Shown piece after piece: positions 4,358-59,602 of a stretch of DNA of 64,000 nt. The position numbers were made by a program, and so were the translations under genes. The notes under the pieces are model-generated. The model worked only from the letters and a program-made list of their open reading frames with translations. It was not told the DNA's origin and ran no database searches. The stretch comes from Paludibacteraceae bacterium. GTDB taxonomy: Bacteria > Bacteroidota > Bacteroidia > Bacteroidales > Paludibacteraceae. The stretch covers positions 4,742 to 68,741 of the forward strand of contig JBJECK010000036.1 in NCBI GenBank assembly GCA_051870995.1, read 5' to 3'. Positions within the stretch are counted from its first letter, which is position 1. Every line of letters starts with the position of its first letter.

Positions 4358-4396
4358 TAGTATAGTATGTTTGTTAATATATTTGTCTTTTCCGGG

Positions 4397-4528
4397 GATG
4401 CCCGAGAGTCCGATGAGAGTCCGATAAATTGCCCTCGGGCAACTACCGCATATCCACAGCTTATCTACAGCTTATCCACCGCTGAATTTCCGCTATCGTC
4501 TCGTTATCGTTTCGTCATCACCTTGTGA
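4397..4528. repeat. 11-nt-period degenerate tandem array (12 units) in the 5' leader of the MFS transporter gene
   Basis: The units read gatgcccgaga gtccgatgaga gtccgataaat tgccctcgggc aactaccgcat atccacagctt atctacagctt atccaccgctg aatttccgcta tcgtctcgtta tcgtttcgtca tcaccttgtga. The register never slips. Confidence 0.85.
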
Positions 4529-4538
4529 AACGCGGGTG

Positions 4539-4546
4539 CAAAAATA
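4539..4546 (-). promoter_or_regulatory. Bacteroidota -7 promoter box (TAttTTTG) for the MFS transporter
   Basis: caaaaata on the + strand is TATTTTTG on the - strand. It lies immediately upstream of the 11-nt array, so the array would be transcribed as leader. Confidence 0.45.
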
Positions 4547-4689
4547 GTGTTTTTTTTCGGTATGCACAAGTTTTGCCGTTTTTTCCGTCCAAAATATCCC
4601 CGCATGCGTGCCGTAAAGCGTCCTGACGGGCACAGATGCGTTTTTTTCTTTTTTTCTATCAAAAAGTTTGCAGAACAAAAAAAAACTAC

Positions 4690-4697
4690 TACCTTTG
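4690..4697 (+). promoter_or_regulatory. Bacteroidota -7 promoter box (TAccTTTG) for recQ
   Basis: tacctttg lies 107 nt upstream of the recQ ATG. Confidence 0.5.
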
Positions 4698-7014: not shown

Positions 7015-7043
7015 AAATCTTAAAAATAGAACATTTTGACCGC
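7015..7043. repeat. 29-nt direct repeat, copy a, flanking the rimO-upstream 11-nt array
   Basis: aaatcttaaaaatagaacattttgaccgc is 26/29 identical to 7120..7148. Confidence 0.85.
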
Positions 7044-7048
7044 TCGCG

Positions 7049-7103
7049 GGTTATACGCGGTCTATGCGCTGGTTATACGCGGTTTATACGCGGTGAATAG
7101 AAT
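7049..7103. repeat. 11-nt-period tandem array (5 units) upstream of rimO
   Basis: The units read ggttatacgcg gtctatgcgct ggttatacgcg gtttatacgcg gtgaatagaat. Confidence 0.85.
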
Positions 7104-7119: not shown

Positions 7120-7148
7120 AAATCTTAATAATCGTACATTTTGACCGC
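7120..7148. repeat. 29-nt direct repeat, copy b
   Basis: aaatcttaataatcgtacattttgaccgc. Confidence 0.85.
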
Positions 7149-7164: not shown

Positions 7165-7187
7165 ATATTAACTATTAATTATTAACT
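7165..7187 (+). promoter_or_regulatory. 23-nt A/T box atattaactattaattattaact, 6 nt upstream of the rimO GTG start
   Basis: It is identical (23/23) to the sequence on the - strand at 45325..45347, which lies 14 nt upstream of the fcl GTG start. Confidence 0.8.
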
Positions 7188-8521: not shown

Positions 8522-8800
8522 ATGCTAACAAAAAATCTGATAGCCAATGTAGCTACGGCTACGGGCATGACAAGAAAGCGGGCAGAAGAGATGCTTAACA
8601 CCACCACAGCCGTGATGCGTGAGGCGCTTATGTCCGGCAAAACCATATCCGTACAGGGAGTGGGTACATTGGAAGTGAGACAAAGAGGCGAGCGCACCAT
8701 TGTGCATCCCCGTACGGGAGAAAAGGGCATCATTCCCGCTAAGAACCAGCTCTATTTCAAGCCGTCAGGCACTATCAAAGACGAACTAAAACGATTGTAG
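8522..8800 (+). CDS. HU/IHF-family DNA-binding protein
   Basis: 92 aa from the ATG at 8522. The sequence LTKNLIANVATATGMTRKRAEEML...GVGTLEVRQRGERTIVHPRTGE has a typical HU fold and arm. The upstream in-frame extension overlaps the rimO stop and is unlikely to be real. Confidence 0.85.
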   Translation: MLTKNLIANVATATGMTRKRAEEMLNTTTAVMREALMSGKTISVQGVGTLEVRQRGERTIVHPRTGEKGIIPAKNQLYFKPSGTIKDELKRL

Positions 8801-8803
8801 GCT

Positions 8804-9970
8804 ATGATGGAGAAACTTAGTTGGACGGACCTGCGCCGTGCCCTCATAGAGCGGACGGGTGCGGATGAGAAAGAAGCAACCCTCTTTCTCAATGCCTTGG
8901 CTGAACAGATCAAAGAGGCGCTGCGCACAGACAAACAAGTCAAGATAAACGGATTGGGCACTTTCCGCCTGCAATCGGTTGCACCCCGCAAGAGTGTCAG
9001 CATAGCTAGCGGAGAAAGCATCACTATTGATAGCTACAACAAGGTAGTCTTTGCGCCGGAAATAGGTATCAAGGAGCTGGTGGAGAATAATCCCATTGAG
9101 CAGCCCGAAGAAGCCATAAATCCTCTGCAGAAGTTAGGGCAGCAGGCCGATGAAATAATCGACATCTTGGCAGACCTGGGGCAAGGACCACGCGCAAATA
9201 AGCAACCCGCCCCCGAACCTGAGCAGACGGCAACCAATCCTATTGCGGAAAAAGAAGAAGAGGTGTCTCCTGCACCCGCAGAGGAGACAAAAGAAGAATC
9301 TGTTACGCCTACAGATGTAGTAGAGCAAGCCGAGCCTGCCGAACCTGAGCAGACATCGGAACCTGCGAAGGTACAGGAGGAGCCGCAGCCTGCAGTTATC
9401 CCGCCGACACCCGCGCAGGAGCAACCGCAAGCCCCTGCTCCGTCCAAGCCGAAACGCAAATACCATTTCCTGCGTGATACGCTTATCTGCACGATATGTA
9501 TTCTGCTCCTTTTGCTGGGAGGCTACTTCTTCCTGCGCGAGCAGTTGGCAAGTTGGGTCAACTCCTTGTCGCAGAAGCAGACTCCGGTTATCGAGGTAGT
9601 GGATACGCTCGCCGTTCCCGTAGCTACGGAGACCGACAGCACAGCCGTAGATTCCGAGCCGACAGACCAACAGCAAACCGATACCGCGGCAACGGTTTTG
9701 CCGCCGGCATACACTCGTTTCCTTGCTACGGAGAACATCCGCGAGGGTAGCCGCCTTTCGTGGCTCGCCTATCGCTACTATGGCAATAAAGAACTATGGG
9801 TATTCATCTACGATGCCAACAAGGAGCATCTGTCCGACCCGAATCAAATCAAGACGGGGACGCCCATACGCATCCCCGAACTGACGACGGAGCAGATGGA
9901 TACATCCAATATACAAACCCGTGCCCTGATAGAAGCCTTGAAAACGGCTGCAAATGCCAAAACGCATTGA
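8804..9970 (+). CDS. Membrane-anchored HU-like domain protein with a Pro/Glu-rich linker, one TM helix and a C-terminal LysM-like domain
   Basis: The N-terminus LSWTDLRRALIERTGADEKEATLFLNAL...INGLGTFRL is HU-like. A P/E/Q-rich region of about 120 aa follows, then the TM segment LICTICILLLLLGGYFFL. The C-terminus GSRLSWLAYRYYGNKELWVFIYDAN...GTPIRIPEL is LysM-like. Confidence 0.7.
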   Translation: MMEKLSWTDLRRALIERTGADEKEATLFLNALAEQIKEALRTDKQVKINGLGTFRLQSVAPRKSVSIASGESITIDSYNKVVFAPEIGIKELVENNPIEQPEEAINPLQKLGQQADEIIDILADLGQGPRANKQPAPEPEQTATNPIAEKEEEVSPAPAEETKEESVTPTDVVEQAEPAEPEQTSEPAKVQEEPQPAVIPPTPAQEQPQAPAPSKPKRKYHFLRDTLICTICILLLLLGGYFFLREQLASWVNSLSQKQTPVIEVVDTLAVPVATETDSTAVDSEPTDQQQTDTAATVLPPAYTRFLATENIREGSRLSWLAYRYYGNKELWVFIYDANKEHLSDPNQIKTGTPIRIPELTTEQMDTSNIQTRALIEALKTAANAKTH

Positions 9971-16473: not shown

Positions 16474-16494
16474 AGATGTACACCTGTTAATCAC

Positions 16495-16593
16495 GTAGGA
16501 TATACGTAAGATATACGTAGGATACACGGAAGATAACCGAGATACAACCGAGAGATGCGCGAGAGACAACCGACACAATAAAAATATACTATG
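16495..16593. repeat. 11-nt-period tandem array (9 units) running up to and including the rhuM ATG
   Basis: The units read gtaggatatac gtaagatatac gtaggatacac ggaagataacc gagatacaacc gagagatgcgc gagagacaacc gacacaataaa aatatactatg. Confidence 0.85.
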
Positions 16594-28200: not shown

Positions 28201-29121
28201 TTAAAAACAATAACAGAACCCTGCACGTACAGAAGCACTATACAGCGTTGCATTCAAGTGGAACATACCCGTCGGTTTGCATTCCGCCTCCGCCAAGACC
28301 CGCCAATGGTTATCCACATCATAGCGACCGCCAAGCATAAAGATAGGCTGCCACATACGCTCCATCTGGAAGTCATCCACGTTGGCGATACAAGCCGATA
28401 TATTCCAGTTGCACGTCTGCGGACGGCAAAAGACCTCCAAACGATAGAGCAGATTAAAGGGCTCTATATTGTATGTCTCGGTAGTGTGCCAGTCTCTATC
28501 CCACGAACTCATCACACGCCCGAACATACCGATATTCAAAGATACATAGTCCATCCTATATCCTACCGACAAAGCCGCACAGAAGTCGCCCTGACGGTTG
28601 CGGGCTACGGCACGATAAAGCAACTCCGTTTCAAGAAACAATTCGCCCGCGGGCAAAGCAAACTTCGGACGCAATACCGCCGCACCCGTATAAACTGCCG
28701 CAGAAGACAACTGCACATTCGCTTGCATTTCAAAGTAAGGATTGATTGGCATCAACGCTCGGATATCGACATTTCCCATGTGCCCCCACGTGCGGTTGTA
28801 GGCATACTCGCCCATAATACCCAGTTGGTAACGCGACTCTCCAAAGCCGCGTAAGGAATGCCCGTCTTTGGCTATATACTCGGTCGGGGAAGCTGCGGTT
28901 GCGACCCAAGCAAGGCAAATGGCTATGAGACTAAGGCAGGCTCGCTTGATACCCAAAAGCAACAGGAAGGTAGTGCATTCTCTCGGCGAAGACAGCTCTC
29001 GTTGCCGTGTCGTTGCCGTGTCGTTGCCGTGTTTTTGCCGTAATCGACCGCTTATCGACCGCTTATCGACCGCTAATTGTCGGCTTTGATTTCTCATATA
29101 TTCTTCTAATTCGATTTTCAT
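28201..29121 (-). CDS. Outer-membrane beta-barrel protein (uncharacterised); the start is uncertain
   Basis: Alternating amphipathic strands and a C-terminal ...GFCYCF (terminal Phe) fit a beta-barrel. The first 40 or so codons of the longest ORF are encoded by an 11-nt tandem array. The signal-like segment KRACLSLIAICLAWVATAASP starts near 28960 and only in-frame TTG codons precede it. The true start is probably about 28950-28965. Confidence 0.5.
   Translation of the reverse strand: MKIELEEYMRNQSRQLAVDKRSISGRLRQKHGNDTATTRQRELSSPRECTTFLLLLGIKRACLSLIAICLAWVATAASPTEYIAKDGHSLRGFGESRYQLGIMGEYAYNRTWGHMGNVDIRALMPINPYFEMQANVQLSSAAVYTGAAVLRPKFALPAGELFLETELLYRAVARNRQGDFCAALSVGYRMDYVSLNIGMFGRVMSSWDRDWHTTETYNIEPFNLLYRLEVFCRPQTCNWNISACIANVDDFQMERMWQPIFMLGGRYDVDNHWRVLAEAECKPTGMFHLNATLYSASVRAGFCYCF
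29000..29087. repeat. 11-nt-period tandem array (8 units) between the mutS2 stop and the OMP signal peptide
   Basis: The units read cgttgccgtgt x3, ttttgccgtaa, tcgaccgctta x2, tcgaccgctaa, ttgtcggcttt. Confidence 0.9.
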
Positions 29122-31425
29122 TTAGGGTATGGTTACTATGGTGTAGCCCGCTCCGCCTCGATCGGGGTCTCCGTCCTTGAACAGCAAAGGGGCGTCTCCG
29201 CGCTTGCGCAGTTGCTTGTTGCGCGCCTCAAGGTGCTCACGCACGACCTGTTTGAGTGCTCCCGTACCCGTTCCGTGGAGAATAGTAACCTCGCCGGCAT
29301 TCACCATTATGGCGTCGTCCATGTAGGCAATCAAGCGCTCCAATGCCTCGTCGGCACGCATCCCGCGCAAGTCGAGTGTGCGCTCGAACGACAAGACCCG
29401 TTGGCGAATGGTATTGCGCATCACGGGATTACTGACGGGCAGGTCTTTGCTTATTCCTTTGAGTTCGCGGAAATCGTGGAGGACTTGCTTTTTGCGCGGC
29501 TCTTTCTCCACCGGAATGGGCGTTACTTCCCGCTTCATTTTCTCAACCCGCGCACGCGCTTGCAGGGTTTGCTGCTTGTTTGCCTTTGCTTCTTTAATCT
29601 CGCGAATGGTTCGTTCGATAGTCGCATTACTTGCCTGCAAGAGTTCAGCCGCCTGTTTCTTTGCTTCGTCCAGCATCTCGCGTTGTTTCTTCTTCAGCCC
29701 CGCAATCTCTTGCTCGTAATAAGCAATCCGCTCTTCGAGATGTTTCTCACGTTGTCGAACCGCTTGCCGCTTGTTTTCCCAATAGCGCTTGTCGCGCGCT
29801 ATATCCTGCAACTGTTTGTCGTAGTCGATATGCTCTTCGCCTACCAAGTCGGTTGCATGCGCTATAATCGTCTCGGGGAGACCGATTTGGCGCGCTATCT
29901 CTACGGCAAAACTACTTCCCGCCTGCCCAATACTGAGTTGGAAAAGCGGCTTCATCTGCCCGCGGTCGTAGAGCATAGCACCATTCACGACTCCTGCTGT
30001 ACTTTCCGCGAAGTGTTTCAGATTGGTATAGTGCGTCGTAATCACTCCGAAAGCCTGCTGCGCCACGAGTTGCGCCAAAACCGCCTCTGCTATAGCTCCG
30101 CCGATAAGCGGCTCCGTGCCTGTGCCGAACTCGTCTATCAACAACAACGTTTCCGCATCAGCGTTGCGCACGAACACCTTCATATTGCGCAGGTGGCTGG
30201 AATAGGTTGACAAATCGTCCTCAATAGATTGTTCGTCTCCGATATCAATCATTATTTGCCGAAAAATACCCATTCGGCTCGTCTCCGCGAAGGGCACAAG
30301 CAAGCCACATTGCACCATATACTGCAAAAGTGCGACCGTTTTGAGGCAGACCGACTTTCCTCCCGCGTTCGGTCCACTAATGACCAGCAACCTGTTTTCG
30401 TTCGCCTGCAAGCGTATAGAAAGAGGAACAACCTGCTTGCCCTGCTGCTGAAACTTAAGGAACAAGACCGGGTGACGCGCTTCTTGCCAGTCAATCAAAG
30501 GCGTATCCGCTATTTCGGGACGAATGGCATGCAGGGTCTGCGCCAGCAAAGCCTTGGCACGCAGGAAGTCCACATACGCCAACATCCGCTCTGTCTCCAT
30601 TATCACAGGCACATTGGGGCGAAGGACAGCCGTCAGTTCTTGCAAGATACGCAAGCGTTCACGGCGCTCTGCGCCCTCCAACTCACGGATACGGTTGTTC
30701 GCCTCCACAACCTGTTGCGGCTCGACATAAACCGTTTTTCCCGTTGCCGACTCGTCGTGGACTATACCGCCAATCTTGCGTTTGTACGCGGGTGGCACAG
30801 GAATAACCAAGCGCCCTTCGCGCAAGGTAGGCGCACTATCCTTCTCCACTATCCCTTCTGCTTGGGCTTGGCGCAATATCTGATTGAGCACGCGCCCGAC
30901 ACTACTCTGCGCCAGCGTCAACTCGTGGCGGATGCGCCCCAACTCGGGCGAAGCGTTGTCCGCCAAACGCCCGTATTTGTCAATCGTGCGGTCAATCAGC
31001 CGCACTATGTCTCCGAGGCTCAGGAAGTCCGATGAGCGTCCGTTGAGAGTCCGAACAGCATGCAAGCGCGGAAAACGCGCCTCGTCCAAAGACGCAAAGA
31101 ACGCTTCCAACCGCCCGGCGTAGTCGATGGTTTGGCGCAAGGAGAACAACTCTGCCTCGTCCAAGAACAAGCCCTCTATACGAATGCGCGCCAGCGCCTC
31201 ACGCAGGTCGTGAATCTCTCCGCGGGGAAATGCTAACGAGCCGTCCTCGAGCACGCGCTTCATCTCGTCGGTCTCGGACAACAAACCAACTATATCTTCA
31301 TAGCCGGTCAGGAACGACATCGCATCCACTTGCTCCCTGCCCAAGAGGGAAGCACACCGTTTGCGCAACTCGTCACGCAAGACGCAGAAGTCAATTTTTT
31401 GCTCTATATTATCCGGATAAATCAC
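29122..31425 (-). CDS. mutS2: Endonuclease MutS2 (MutS domain plus C-terminal Smr)
   Basis: 767 aa with Walker A GPNAGGKS, DEFGTGTEP and a C-terminal Smr domain (LDLRGMRADEAL...ILHGTGTGALK). Confidence 0.95.
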   Translation of the reverse strand: MIYPDNIEQKIDFCVLRDELRKRCASLLGREQVDAMSFLTGYEDIVGLLSETDEMKRVLEDGSLAFPRGEIHDLREALARIRIEGLFLDEAELFSLRQTIDYAGRLEAFFASLDEARFPRLHAVRTLNGRSSDFLSLGDIVRLIDRTIDKYGRLADNASPELGRIRHELTLAQSSVGRVLNQILRQAQAEGIVEKDSAPTLREGRLVIPVPPAYKRKIGGIVHDESATGKTVYVEPQQVVEANNRIRELEGAERRERLRILQELTAVLRPNVPVIMETERMLAYVDFLRAKALLAQTLHAIRPEIADTPLIDWQEARHPVLFLKFQQQGKQVVPLSIRLQANENRLLVISGPNAGGKSVCLKTVALLQYMVQCGLLVPFAETSRMGIFRQIMIDIGDEQSIEDDLSTYSSHLRNMKVFVRNADAETLLLIDEFGTGTEPLIGGAIAEAVLAQLVAQQAFGVITTHYTNLKHFAESTAGVVNGAMLYDRGQMKPLFQLSIGQAGSSFAVEIARQIGLPETIIAHATDLVGEEHIDYDKQLQDIARDKRYWENKRQAVRQREKHLEERIAYYEQEIAGLKKKQREMLDEAKKQAAELLQASNATIERTIREIKEAKANKQQTLQARARVEKMKREVTPIPVEKEPRKKQVLHDFRELKGISKDLPVSNPVMRNTIRQRVLSFERTLDLRGMRADEALERLIAYMDDAIMVNAGEVTILHGTGTGALKQVVREHLEARNKQLRKRGDAPLLFKDGDPDRGGAGYTIVTIP

Positions 31426-44368: not shown

Positions 44369-45310
44369 TTATCTCTCCGCACGCATGGGGTTGTGGAGGA
44401 AGTCGGCATAGGCGAGGCGAATGCCGTCTTCGAGTTCGGTTTTGTATGTCCAGCCCAAAGCCGTTGCTTTGGATACATCCAAGAGTTTGCAGGGTGTGCC
44501 GTTGGGGCGCGTGGTATCCCAGAGGATTTGCCCTTCGTAGCCAATGACCTTGGCGACGAGTTCCGTCAGTTGCTTGATAGTCAGTTCTTTGCCTGTTCCT
44601 GCATTGACGGTCTCGTTGCCGGAGTAGTGGCTCATCAAGAATACACAGAGGTTGGCAAGGTCGTCCACATAGAGGAACTCGCGCAAGGGTGAGCCGTCGC
44701 CCCAACAAGTAACCGACTCGGCGTGCGCCTCCTTCGCCTCGTGGAAGCGGCGGATGAGGGCAGGGAGTACGTGGGAGTGCTCGGGGTGGTAGTTGTCGTT
44801 GGGTCCGTAGAGGTTGGTGGGCATGACGGAGATATAGTCAGTACCGTACTGGCGGTTGAGGAACTCGCAGTATTTGAGTCCGGAAATCTTAGCCAAGGCA
44901 TACGCCTCGTTGGTCTTCTCCAACTCTCCGGTGAGGAGGCAACTCTCCGTCATAGGCTGCGGGGCAAGGCGCGGATAGATACAAGACGAGCCAAGGAACT
45001 CCAATTTCTTGCAGCCGTTCTGCCACGCGGCGTGGATGACGTTCATTTCGAGTATCATGTTGTCGTACATAAAGTCGGCGAGGGCGTTTTGGTTGGCAAC
45101 AATGCCCCCCACTTTCGCCGCGGCGAGGAAGACGTACTCCGGCTTCTCCTGCGCGAAAAACGCCTCTACCGCATCCTGACGGCAAAGGTCCAACTCCTTG
45201 TGCGTGCGCGTGATGATATTGGTGTAGCCCTGACGCTGCAACTCGCGCACAATAGCAGAGCCCACCATTCCACGGTGACCCGCTACGTATATCTTGCTTT
45301 GTTTCTCCAC
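44369..45310 (-). CDS. fcl: GDP-L-fucose synthase (GDP-4-keto-6-deoxy-D-mannose 3,5-epimerase/4-reductase)
   Basis: IYVAGHRGMVGSAIVREL...VFLAAAKVGGI...SSCIYP...YALAKI are present. The start is GTG at 45310. Confidence 0.95.
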   Translation of the reverse strand: MEKQSKIYVAGHRGMVGSAIVRELQRQGYTNIITRTHKELDLCRQDAVEAFFAQEKPEYVFLAAAKVGGIVANQNALADFMYDNMILEMNVIHAAWQNGCKKLEFLGSSCIYPRLAPQPMTESCLLTGELEKTNEAYALAKISGLKYCEFLNRQYGTDYISVMPTNLYGPNDNYHPEHSHVLPALIRRFHEAKEAHAESVTCWGDGSPLREFLYVDDLANLCVFLMSHYSGNETVNAGTGKELTIKQLTELVAKVIGYEGQILWDTTRPNGTPCKLLDVSKATALGWTYKTELEDGIRLAYADFLHNPMRAER

Positions 45311-45324
45311 AATAACAGTTAAAT

Positions 45325-45347
45325 AGTTAATAATTAATAGTTAATAT
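45325..45347 (-). promoter_or_regulatory. 23-nt A/T box atattaactattaattattaact (second copy), 14 nt upstream of the fcl GTG start
   Basis: The reverse complement of 45325..45347 is identical to 7165..7187. Confidence 0.8.
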
Positions 45348-45356
45348 TTCATTGCG

Positions 45357-45499
45357 GCACTCGGTATCGGTGCGGTATTGTCCCGGTATCGGTTCGTGAA
45401 TCACCCACTAATCACATACTAATCACCCACTCTTGGCTCGGCATCGTCTCGGTATCGATTCGGTAATCACCCGATAATCACCCGATAATCACCCGATAA
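45357..45499. repeat. 11-nt-period degenerate tandem array (13 units) in the gmd-fcl spacer
   Basis: The units read gcactcggtat cggtgcggtat tgtcccggtat cggttcgtgaa tcacccactaa tcacatactaa tcacccactct tggctcggcat cgtctcggtat cgattcggtaa, then tcacccgataa x3. There is no register slip. Confidence 0.9.
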
Positions 45500-45601: not shown

Positions 45602-46705
45602 CTATTTGACAATTCCTTTCTCCAAGTACTCCGCCAAGTTGGTGCGCGCCTGCTCTGCGGCGTGGTCGGCTGCGACCTTGCGCATATCCAACTGCACCAT
45701 GAGGCGTACCAACTGCTCGAACGTGGTTTTGCCCGGGTTCCATCCCAACTCCTTGCGCGCCTTGGCGGGGTCTCCCCAGAGGTTGACCACATCGGTTGGG
45801 CGGTAGAAGTCGGGAGAGACCTCGACAAGGGTCTTACCTACAAGGTGGGCAGGTCCTGCGGTGCAGACACCCTTCTCGTTCTGTCCCTCGCCATCGAAAC
45901 GGAGCGTGATGCCGACCTCACGGAATGCGAGGTCGCAGAACTCGCGCACGGAGTGCTGCACGCCGGTGGCGATGACAAAGTCCTCGGGGGTGTCGTGCTG
46001 GAGGATGAGCCACATGCACTCGACATAGTCCTTGGCATAACCCCAGTCGCGCAGCGAAGAAAGGTTGCCGAGGTAGAGTTTGTCCTGCTTGCCCTGCGCG
46101 ATACGCGCCGCCGCGAGGGTGATTTTGCGGGTGACAAATGTCTCGCCGCGGCGCTCGGACTCGTGGTTGAAGAGGATGCCGGAGCAGCAGAACATGTTGT
46201 ACGCCTCGCGGTACTCCTTGACAATCCAGTAGCCGTAGAGTTTGGCGACGGCGTATGGCGAATAGGGGTGGAAAGGCGTGTTCTCATTCTGCGGGACTTC
46301 CTCGACCTTGCCGTAGAGTTCGGACGTGGACGCCTGGTAGATGCGGCAGGTGTCGGTCAGACCGCATGCGCGCACCGCCTCCAAGATACGCAAAACGCCG
46401 GTAGCATCAATATTCGCCGTATATTCAGGGGAGTCGAAACTAACTTGCACGTGGGATTATGCCGCAAGGTTGTAGATCTCGTCGGGACGCACCTTGCCGA
46501 TGACTTGGATGAGTCCCATGGAATCGGAGAGGTCGCCGTAGTGGAGGTGGAAATGAGGTTGCCCCTCGAGGTGGGCGATGCGCTCGCGGTAGTCCACCGA
46601 CGAACGGCGGATGATGCCGTGGACATCGTATCCCTTGTCCAACAGGAACTCGCTCAGGTAAGAGCCGTCTTGTCCTGTTACTCCCGTGATTAAAGCTGTC
46701 TTCAT
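45602..46705 (-). pseudogene. gmd: GDP-mannose 4,6-dehydratase interrupted by a single in-frame TAA (codon 83)
   Basis: The two co-linear, in-frame ORFs 46457..46705 and 45602..46450 together read ...[22 protein letters not shown].... Gmd orthologues have NLAAQSHV here, so CAA has become TAA at 46457..46459. The rest of the gene is intact ([25 protein letters not shown]). Confidence 0.85.
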
Positions 46706-46730: not shown

Positions 46731-46738
46731 CAAAGGTA
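46731..46738 (-). promoter_or_regulatory. -7 promoter box (TAccTTTG) for gmd
   Basis: caaaggta on the + strand lies 26 nt upstream of the ATG at 46705. Confidence 0.5.
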
Positions 46739-46890: not shown

Positions 46891-47569
46891 CACCGCGAAA
46901 CCCACATTTGGAGTCTGTCTCATGGTGCTAAAGTTTTTTTTGGGCACAGTGGAGTAATCAATCGGTGGGGATTGCAGACATTTTGAAAAAGGCGTTTGTT
47001 GAAGCGCTGTTCTGACTCTTGAAATCTCGCAAATTTCTAATTACCTCAGAGCATCCGCAACGATGAATGTCCGTGGGATATAAGTATCTATCATGTCCCC
47101 CTTGGATTGTTGTGTCCGTTTTTTTGGGGATGTGGTTATTTATATCTGCGTGGGCTTCGCGTTGTCGTTCTTAGGTAATGGGCAATGCGAGAGCCTCAAG
47201 AGTGGGAACGACATCAAGAGAACTCCCACGCTTTTTTTATGTCTGATTGTGTCATTGCTGATATGGGTGAATAGTGCCCTATATTCGGAAGGCGCATATT
47301 TGTTTTACTAATCATACGGGATAGGAGTTCGCCTGTACAATAAAGCATTGTAGGTATAACTTGTACGTTAGTAAGAACTTCATCATGTTGTTATTTGCCG
47401 GATTTATTGGCAAGGATTGCGTTATTAGCGGGAGAGAGTGTTCTTCCGCCGGATGGTTTGTATGTATTTTCGTACAGGTAAAACGGTGTGAGTCTCAAAA
47501 TGATATGGAGGAACTCGAAAATCCAAAAAAGAGTAGAGGAATAATCTAATTACAAAACAAAACATTACA

Positions 47570-48331
47570 ATGAAAAAAGTTTCATTTATTCTGTGTTCTC
47601 TTCTTTGCGCCATGAGTGTATCGGCTCAGTTATCAACAGGCAAGGTGAACTCAACCATTATTCCGCGCACAGGGAACCGTCCGCAAGCAGGCGATATGGG
47701 TTTCTATATCGGTGCATCGGTAAGCCAGGTTCTGGACCTAATCAACTTCAACAACTCCCACGCTGACAAGGCGACGGGTTACGGTGAGTGGTACTGGGCA
47801 TTGCCTGTACTGAATCTCAAGTACTATGCGACCGACAACTGGGAGACCCGTCTCGGTTTTGAATTCTCGTGCTACTCGGAGACCAACAAGACGAGCATGG
47901 ACGGCGATACGTACAAGACAGCCACCAACTGCAATTTCACGCGTCTGCTTCCCGGTGCGGCATACCACTTCAACACCAACAATATCTTAGATGTATATTT
48001 GGGTGCACAAATTCCTATCGGATGGAATATCAACAGCGAGAAGACAAGCGGTCCGGACATGACCAAGAAGACGACTGAAAACGCCTTTGTTATCGGTGCC
48101 GGAATATTCGGCGGTTTGCAGGTATTCATCGCGGACCTGCCTTTTGCCATCGGTGTAGAGTTGGGCTATTCGGGAAAAGCCACCTTCGGCGGTGCGCCAA
48201 ATACCAAATACACGACCAACGGCGACACCGGCAACACAGAAGAAGGCAACATGAATACAAAGGCGACACGTGCTTCGGGTACATGGGGTGCGGATGCTGC
48301 TATCACGTTCTCTTATTATTTCCGCAAGTAA
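47570..48331 (+). CDS. Outer-membrane beta-barrel (porin-like) protein
   Basis: The signal peptide is MKKVSFILCSLLCAMSVSAQ. Alternating strands and a C-terminal ...ITFSYYFRK fit a beta-barrel. Confidence 0.7.
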   Translation: MKKVSFILCSLLCAMSVSAQLSTGKVNSTIIPRTGNRPQAGDMGFYIGASVSQVLDLINFNNSHADKATGYGEWYWALPVLNLKYYATDNWETRLGFEFSCYSETNKTSMDGDTYKTATNCNFTRLLPGAAYHFNTNNILDVYLGAQIPIGWNINSEKTSGPDMTKKTTENAFVIGAGIFGGLQVFIADLPFAIGVELGYSGKATFGGAPNTKYTTNGDTGNTEEGNMNTKATRASGTWGADAAITFSYYFRK

Positions 48332-51947: not shown

Positions 51948-52019
51948 TGTCCAATGGTATAAAGGCTATTACGTCAGATTTTGGTTCTGAAAATCCTGGT
52001 TCGATTCCGGGTTGGACAA
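51948..52019 (+). tRNA. tRNA-Gln (anticodon UUG)
   Basis: I folded the cloverleaf by hand. The acceptor is tgtccaa/ttggaca with a U1:A72 pair and the D stem is gta/tac. The anticodon stem is tcaga/tctga with loop tt-TTG-gt. The T arm is cctgg-ttcgatt-ccggg. CCA is not encoded. Confidence 0.8.
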
Positions 52020-59536: not shown

Positions 59537-59602
59537 GTTTATAAAGCATTTATAAAGCGTTTATAAACCATTAGAATCTATATAAACAGAACACAAAATA
59601 TG
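59537..59602. repeat. 11-nt-period tandem array (6 units) running into the tcdA ATG
   Basis: The units read gtttataaagc atttataaagc gtttataaacc attagaatcta tataaacagaa cacaaaatatg. Confidence 0.8.

Follow-up and report, generated by a model that had tools for sequence, protein, structure and literature searches.

What kind of element is a run of 13 abutting 11-nt units between two genes, and does it act on behalf of the gene in front of which it lies? The question is raised by the spacer between gmd and fcl in a 64,000-nt stretch of the genome of a Paludibacteraceae bacterium (GenBank assembly GCA_051870995.1, contig JBJECK010000036.1) – hereafter the window, meaning this whole stretch – in which five further arrays of the same period occupy other intergenic sites. 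The first-pass annotation of the window took these six arrays for a family of gene leaders. We see no sign of a dedicated gene-leader signal in them; the reading that we favour, with a probability of about 0.5, is that they form a dispersed, clade-restricted, satellite-like family of long-unit 11-bp repeats, which would arise by unit-wise duplication in tolerant spacer DNA and would have at most generic effects on its neighbours. The arrays, none of which is assigned to a strand, are the following.

45357..45499, array A5, the flagship: 13 units of 11 nt in the gmd–fcl spacer
4397..4528, array A1: 12 units of 11 nt in the divergent spacer between a major facilitator superfamily (MFS) transporter gene and recQ; three sub-blocks, the middle one weak
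7045..7103, array A2: about five units (GGTTATACGCG) in the recQ–rimO spacer
16493..16580, array A3: about eight units, ACGTAGGATAT drifting to CCGAGAGACAA, in the spacer from an ABC-F gene to rhuM
28999..29087, array A4: two blocks, CGTTGCCGTGT three to four times and TCGACCGCTTA three to four times, from mutS2 to a gene for a signal-peptide-bearing protein resembling an outer-membrane protein (OMP)
59537..59572, array A6: about 3.2 AT-rich units (GTTTATAAAGC) upstream of tcdA; the weakest member, with one CG only

At A5 the 13 consecutive units can be read from the sequence in a single register, and Tandem Repeats Finder (TRF) divides the interval 45357–45499 into four adjoining period-11 blocks, with more period-11 blocks at the other five sites. 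When the entire window was searched for matches to itself (at least 73% identity over 33 nt at lag p, p = 5–30), the scan returned eight segments at p = 11, one each at p = 22 – a harmonic of 11 – and p = 24, and none at any other p within that range, against 0.0 segments in Markov shuffles of the window; period 11 is the sole enriched tandem period there. The strict, slip-free periodicity described in the first-pass annotation is thus borne out by register reading, by TRF and by the shuffle-controlled scan of the window, and its five further copies are present too, the ends of all but A1 having been slightly trimmed to the coordinates given above. The drift in blocks from one unit type to another is equally real: in A5, units 1–3 and 8–10 are of a GGTATCGGTxC type and units 5–7 and 11–13 of a TAATCACCCxA type, the final three being identical, and the second half approximately repeats the first, giving a higher-order repeat of roughly 77 nt. 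Stop triplets can be seen directly to rotate through all reading frames. As the units abut head to tail without spacers, clustered regularly interspaced short palindromic repeats (CRISPR), with repeats of 23–50 nt separated by unique spacers, are ruled out, and the earlier statement that the arrays are neither CRISPR, repetitive extragenic palindromic (REP) elements nor coding repeats stands. On a gene map built from a codon model and Pfam, in which the start of the OMP-like gene beside A4 was reassigned, the window has 25 intergenic gaps that reach 60 nt, and the six arrays occupy six of them: five are spacers between co-oriented genes and one is divergent.

Independent Logan assemblies of the same species – defined by a MutS2 in the 90%-identity cluster of the 99%-identical protein P0001, with RimO and RhuM identical to the window's – reproduce the A1- and A2-containing spacers base for base (A1 in L170, A2 in L170 and L171, from two other samples) and carry A3, and the opening part of A4, without any difference, so the arrays are not an assembly artefact. 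The same-species contigs recovered with RimO, RhuM and MutS2 are either identical to the window or end inside arrays, and exact look-ups of Fcl and TcdA for same-species contigs returned nothing; among the proteins collected, the relative closest to Fcl reaches 94% identity. Five of six same-species short-read contigs (L161, L163, L164, L166 and L167) end within 3 nt of one another inside block A4a (29020–29035), the sixth, L165, stopping short of A4; because a k = 31 graph should hold together across the three copies present in the window, these ends hint at copy-number heterogeneity, or at more than three copies, in those samples. In a contingency-locus variable-number tandem repeat (VNTR), copy number differs among strains of one species; for the arrays, variation as such is seen between species only. 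The host context is that of an uncultured, Paludibacteraceae-like member of the gut or rumen Bacteroidales: the nearest RimO relatives come from uncultured Bacteroidales/Paludibacteraceae metagenome-assembled genomes at no more than 77% identity, and one member of the window's 90%-identity MutS2 cluster carries the label Paludibacteraceae.

The units, for all their variety, are related to one another. The observed/expected ratio of CpG is 1.85 in the window arrays and 1.09 in the rest of the intergenic DNA, that of TpA 1.33 and 0.81, and CG is present in 41 of the 50 units, which gives statistical substance to the earlier description of units built from a TA step and a CG core. Among block-consensus units of different loci, seven pairs lie at a distance of at most 1, where shuffled units lead one to expect 0.1; a unit of A3 is matched exactly at a different locus in L017, and one of A4 with a single mismatch at two loci in L135, near-identical units thus recurring at non-orthologous loci and in other species. 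Aligned in the best rotation and strand of each, the units yield 7.25 bits, against 5.89 ± 0.18 after shuffling, around a (T)TATC core; GATA/TATC is the top periodic 4-mer and occurs in 14 of 27 independent arrays, the TTATC/GATAA core being present in about half. Within arrays, the core columns deviate at 0.24–0.32 and the others at 0.16–0.35, so that the core is no better conserved and no purifying selection on GATA is detected by this comparison, and its orientation relative to the downstream gene is sense in 12 cases and antisense in 14, by which a sense-strand motif or polarity is rejected. Since the core faces either way and is no less variable than its surroundings, it would be better explained by common descent or mutational bias than as a maintained site. 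Palindromic 4-mers of the kind found at restriction or nick sites are not enriched in the arrays, and a Rho-utilisation (rut)-like strand, C-rich and poor in G, was dropped as a candidate: A5 alternates G-rich and C-rich units, and the mean absolute GC skew of the 11-nt class is 0.33.

Such arrays were traced in relatives at the surroundings of rimO in genomes (80 loci, 1.3 Mb) and of fcl in metagenomes (80 loci). Around rimO, 17 of the 18 period-11 arrays fall in the 23 Paludibacteraceae-like loci (L002–L024) and one in the 55 other Bacteroidota loci. The periods of non-coding arrays in these relatives cluster at 7 and at 11/22, those of 5, 8–10 and 12–13 being rare; the fcl set contains 52 period-7 segments and eight at period 11, and the rimO relatives likewise carry many 7-nt arrays. 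The two classes are distinct in composition, the 7-nt arrays having a CpG ratio of 0.52 and an absolute GC skew of 0.64, and those of 11 nt a CpG ratio of 1.33 in the relatives.

Comparison of orthologous spacers, a check that the first-pass annotation had itself suggested, shows that unit number differs between species. The gmd–fcl spacer of L081, whose Fcl is 95% identical, holds five units of A5's two types, against 13 in the window, within unrelated flanks. In the sister species L162 (MutS2 80% identical) the mutS2–OMP spacer measures 30 nt and contains no A4 array, and in L001 and L002 the recQ–rimO spacer is 53–69 nt long and likewise devoid of one. At two other sites an array is present throughout and its units change: the window, L001 and L002 each have an 11-nt array downstream of ABC-F, with diverged units, and the MFS–recQ spacer carries an 11-nt or 22-nt array in at least nine related species, again with quite different units. 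The turnover – 13 versus five units at 95% Fcl identity, A4 and A2 missing in sisters – argues, as far as sequence comparison goes, for a satellite-like family, and the arrays kept at ABC-F and MFS–recQ would represent concerted evolution in place.

According to this reading, arrays would grow and shrink by duplication or deletion of whole units and of several units together, through slipped-strand mispairing or unequal exchange, 11-nt loops presumably escaping mismatch repair. Because change would go by whole units, the period would be passed on even as units diverge in sequence and are made alike locally; the same kind of growth would produce the runs of identical units and A5's higher-order repeat. 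The common period, core and dinucleotide signature would then stem from a single family that has descended and spread, rather than from separate origins or from a binding site held in common, and arrays would persist wherever a non-triplet insertion is tolerated – in operon-internal spacers, upstream of promoters and, occasionally, in protein loops when the frame is kept. Any effect on a neighbouring gene would be generic at most: a longer spacer, stops in all frames or altered local DNA mechanics. The window itself holds one copy inside a gene.

31026..31058, no strand assigned: three 11-nt units in the mutS2 coding sequence, in a variable loop at about residues 124–134

The exact 11-mer AGTCCGATGAG is common to this copy and A1 (4408–4418), and mutS2 homologues vary in both length and sequence at the loop. 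Arrays of 7 or 8 nt are found in metagenome contigs inside the gmd coding sequence (surface loop and C-terminal region) and in other predicted genes.

L083, 9622–9704: 7-/8-nt array within a gene
L096, 3765–3814: 7-/8-nt array within a gene
L101, 3655–3695: 7-/8-nt array within a gene
L115: 7-nt run in gmd, upstream of fcl

The arrays in gmd suggest that the repeat-generating process also enters open reading frames (ORFs) when the frame is kept, and, together with the period-11 copy in mutS2, that it is not tied to leaders.

Several points weigh against a passive family of this kind. Plain slippage leaves the clustering at 7 and 11 nt, and the rarity of 5, 8–10 and 12–13, unexplained. The MFS–recQ and ABC-F arrays persist across RimO identities of 68–77%, which is long for useless DNA, and bacteria tend to lose such DNA under deletion bias. 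Same-species assemblies are without length variation at A1 and A2, so no hypervariability is demonstrated; nor does this reading account for the spread between loci.

Whether the arrays could nonetheless be leaders depends on how they lie relative to genes and promoters. The features needed for this are listed here, the -7 box being the Bacteroidetes promoter element TAnnTTTG.

44369..45310, minus strand: fcl (GDP-L-fucose synthase), downstream of A5
44354–44328: a good intrinsic terminator after fcl
45602..46705, minus strand: gmd, upstream of A5, with a -7 box at 46731
45325..45347, minus strand: AT-rich, 7-nt-periodic 23-mer ATATTAACTATTAATTATTAACT, between A5 and fcl, 14 nt before the GTG start codon of that gene
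7165..7187, plus strand: a second, identical copy of this 23-mer, 6 nt before the GTG at which rimO starts
4378..4385, plus strand: -7 box TATATTTG, pointing into A1
4539..4546, minus strand: -7 box TATTTTTG, directed into A1, on the way to the MFS gene

Of 44 matches to the -7 box in the window, 20 fall in the approximately 9% of it that is intergenic. None occurs anywhere in the spacers of A2–A6, hence none between array and downstream start, and no intrinsic terminator lies between gmd and fcl, which makes co-transcription of the arrays plausible; A1, for its part, is the 5' untranslated region of the MFS gene if the box at 4539..4546 is used. In this window, then, the arrays are probably transcribed, and their non-coding position in spacers upstream of start codons is as first described. 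In the relatives matters stand differently: where a spacer contains a -7 box of the downstream gene, the array is upstream of that box every time, at distances of 52–488 nt without phasing, and in the MFS–recQ spacer of at least seven related species it sits between back-to-back promoters, A1 of the window being the only case bracketed by inward-facing boxes. Lying upstream of the box, these arrays are probably untranscribed. Within co-directional spacers, arrays show no greater proximity to the start of the following gene than to the stop of the preceding one; per kb of spacer there are 0.49 arrays where the genes are co-directional, 0.61 where they diverge and 0.21 where they converge. Given these spacer types, the start and stop distances and the place upstream of -7 boxes, the family is not defined by being a leader, contrary to the original proposal; the related claim of co-directional placement is correct for five of the six spacers in the window and fails as a statement of polarity.

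Some observations on these spacers may be recorded beside the arrays. The 23-mer is TAACTNT-like, with no such match in any of 100 shuffles, and resembles the start-proximal TAACTGA heptamer repeats of Beggiatoaceae and Bacteroidetes. A2, together with about 30 nt, is bracketed by a 13-nt direct repeat, ACATTTTGACCGC, at 7032–7044 and 7136–7148, each copy of which approximates a -7 box with one additional T. Directly downstream of rimO are two HU-family genes, at 8522–8800 (92 aa) and 8804–9970 (388 aa), the larger product having a Bac_DNA_binding domain and being annotated as HU-HIG-type in a same-species contig. The gmd gene is broken by an in-frame TAA at 46459–46457 (minus strand), where the conserved motif is NLAA(Q)SHV, into ORFs of 82 and 282 aa – a pseudogene or a sequencing error – and fcl is intact.

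The leader hypothesis takes the form of an RNA-level leader or intercistronic element, the view taken in the first-pass annotation. It might work through an S1- or Csp-like single-strand RNA-binding protein, as proposed for the TAACTGA heptamers, as a ribosome standby site or insulator, or as a train of RNA polymerase pause sites, for which the consensus is G-10/Y-1/G+1 and which a periodic pyrimidine–G step (YG) would supply once per unit. The sense strands of A1–A5 do contain 9–15 pause-consensus triplets per 100 nt (about one per unit) against 3.65 in coding DNA, but the triplets are equally frequent on the antisense strand, there being no strand polarity, and the units of L011 and L012 have no YG on either strand. 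Five window arrays in co-directional spacers that lack a -7 box, the missing gmd–fcl terminator, the inward-facing boxes around A1, the stop codons in every frame and the identical AT-rich heptamer 23-mer that follows two arrays just before a GTG start would all suit an RNA element; the relatives' arrays, upstream of their promoters or in convergent spacers and no nearer to starts than to stops, would not, and the orthologous genes of sister species manage without an array. Nor does folding lend support: predicted energies on both strands give z-scores of -1.5 to +0.4 relative to dinucleotide shuffles, A6 excepted (-3.6 and -2.3; its unit TTTATAAA is itself palindromic), and no array matches Rfam 15 at the gathering threshold, so that both a structured RNA and an RNA selected to be unstructured are rejected. 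Taken together, we regard an RNA-level role as unlikely. The same z-scores, and the absence of palindromic 4-mer enrichment, do not agree with palindromic hairpin units of the REP or bacterial interspersed mosaic element (BIME) kind. The window's only Rfam matches lie elsewhere: a DUF805b cis-regulatory motif at 47505–47539, within a divergent spacer of 906 nt that precedes the gene at 47612, and a tRNA gene at 51948–52019, in a 576-nt spacer.

An exact period of 11 is near the helical repeat, and this invites a DNA-level alternative, a phased platform in which flexible TA and CG steps, often with a GATA core, would lie on one face of underwound DNA and either carry a head-to-tail protein coat or pin and absorb supercoils, insulating or tuning the neighbouring transcription units; an OmpR/PhoB-type regulator, DnaA or a Bacteroidetes HU-family protein would be the candidates. 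The CpG and TpA enrichment and the rank of GATA among periodic 4-mers would fit, as would the array between the back-to-back MFS and recQ promoters of at least seven related species, divergent transcription being, in the twin-domain model, a source of negative supercoiling, and the two HU-family genes adjoining rimO. DnaA is brought in by the middle of A1.

4450–4480, A1 middle block: three DnaA-box-like 9-mers, ATATCCACA, TTATCTACA and TTATCCACC, head to tail, 11 bp apart

These three lie within one mismatch of TTATNCACA, at a spacing also used in oriC arrays of low-affinity DnaA boxes; an AT-rich stretch is found about 150 nt beyond them (about 4640–4690). Yet A2 and A4 contain such boxes only at two mismatches, and A3, A5 and A6 are at chance level, so that DnaA-box arrays fit A1 alone and are rejected as a general explanation. 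Intrinsic curvature, which the first-pass annotation had offered, fares similarly. Of the six arrays, A4 alone passes the 95th percentile (at the 99th) in each of two wedge models based on dinucleotides, and the other five are ordinary, the flagship A5 at the 29th and 80th; a general intrinsic curvature is rejected for five of the six arrays on this basis. In the window with arrays masked, the search for 10–11-bp dinucleotide periodicity gave only weak peaks, near 10.75–11.75, which carry no information on the arrays. A response-regulator operator of direct repeats was likewise set aside, the core being absent from about half of the arrays and not preferentially conserved and the distance to the -7 box running, unphased, over the range given above. 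Units that differ widely between and within arrays, the absence of an array at two sites in sister species, and the co-occurring 7-nt arrays, which cannot be helically phased per unit, also tell against a platform, and we consider it doubtful, though not far-fetched. Its more specific version – a clade-specific chromatin or topology device, in which an HU-family fusion protein or DnaA filament, or supercoil pinning, would insulate adjacent transcription units – strikes us as distinctly improbable; if true, it would explain why, at MFS–recQ and ABC-F, period and position but not sequence are kept over genus-level divergence. Remnants of a mobile element inserting into intergenic DNA, a BrickBuilt-type transposable element of the miniature inverted-repeat kind (MITE) or another element with an internal minisatellite, would account for near-identical units at non-orthologous loci and in different species, for the two oppositely oriented arrays of L135 that share the array and a partly similar tail of about 20 nt, and for the direct repeat flanking A2. 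An all-against-all comparison of the six spacers (blastn-short), however, finds similarity only inside the arrays, with no shared leader, tail or terminal inverted repeats, and fixed positions with changing units across species are better matched by evolution in place than by repeated insertion; we hold this origin to be very improbable.

Turning to described repeat systems, BrickBuilt of Porphyromonas gingivalis is a MITE with a 23-nt unit, a conserved leader and tail, inverted-repeat ends and promoter activity, its copies lying 49–591 nt from genes (Klein et al. 2015, PMC4596501). Bacteroidales hosts, spacer-less tandem units, intergenic location and multiple loci per genome are common to both, whereas here the unit is 11 nt long and varies between loci and there BrickBuilt repeats one conserved sequence of 23; the comparison proposed in the first-pass annotation therefore yields no match in unit or flanks. 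Certain prokaryotes have an excess of long-unit simple sequence repeats (SSRs), of about 5–11 bp, between their genes (Huang & Mrazek 2014, PMC4060949). Such SSRs resemble the present arrays in being non-coding, genome-specific in their over-representation and made of units too long for suppression by mismatch repair, and differ in being a statistical class, whereas here a single period of 11 dominates and units are related across loci and species. Mrazek et al. (2007) reportedly also dealt with long-unit SSRs in prokaryotes. Pho boxes, ArcA and PhoP sites and the low-affinity DnaA-box arrays of oriC are head-to-tail protein-binding repeats with 11-bp spacing; a single orientation, 11 bp from centre to centre and a conserved core of 4–5 bp recall the arrays, but such sites lie close to a promoter or origin and comprise 2–5 units whose core is well conserved, against up to 13 units here, a core in about half and a variable promoter distance. 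The mycobacterial interspersed repetitive units (MIRUs) are intercistronic minisatellites with units of about 46–100 bp, containing small ORFs coupled to the flanking genes: they, too, are tandem repeats between co-oriented operon genes whose copy number differs between lineages, unlike the present arrays in that the latter have 11-nt units with stops in all frames. Literature searches, full text included, turned up no account from Bacteroidetes or Paludibacteraceae of a family of intergenic repeats with an 11-bp or 11-nt unit.

Closest among known repeats, with the 6–11-bp intergenic SSRs as the wider statistical class, are the intergenic heptamer arrays: the short tandemly repeated repetitive (STRR) sequences of cyanobacteria and the TAACTGA arrays, which occur in Beggiatoaceae, Cyanobacteria and some Bacteroidetes, Paludibacter propionicigenes among them (MacGregor 2015, PMC4679880). 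Shared with these are short units, the lack of spacers, an intergenic position often close to start codons, restriction to certain lineages, close relatives with shorter, repeat-less spacers, and assemblies that break in the repeats; the relatives of the window moreover carry many 7-nt arrays, and the window has its TAACTNT-like 23-mer before two starts. The unit, in contrast, is 11 nt in all six arrays instead of 7, the 7-nt arrays being separate elements beside A2 and A5, and the forward orientation just upstream of the start is not seen here, given cores that face either way. The 11-nt arrays are a variant of STRR/TAACTGA-type intergenic repeats, not of BrickBuilt.

Short, non-triplet intergenic arrays such as STRR and TAACTGA fill spacers in several bacterial lineages. 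To these the present genome contributes a second class, different in composition, with one sharp 11-bp period and units common to loci and species, some members of which stay in place and keep their period although their sequence is replaced. If these arrays are passengers, they would offer a clean bacterial example of satellite-DNA dynamics, including concerted evolution and higher-order repeats, as well as a practical cause of breaks in metagenome assemblies. If selection instead acts on the period, the arrays would indicate that an abundant uncultured clade of the gut and rumen insulates its genes, or organises its nucleoid, by a mechanism that depends on helical phase and not on sequence.

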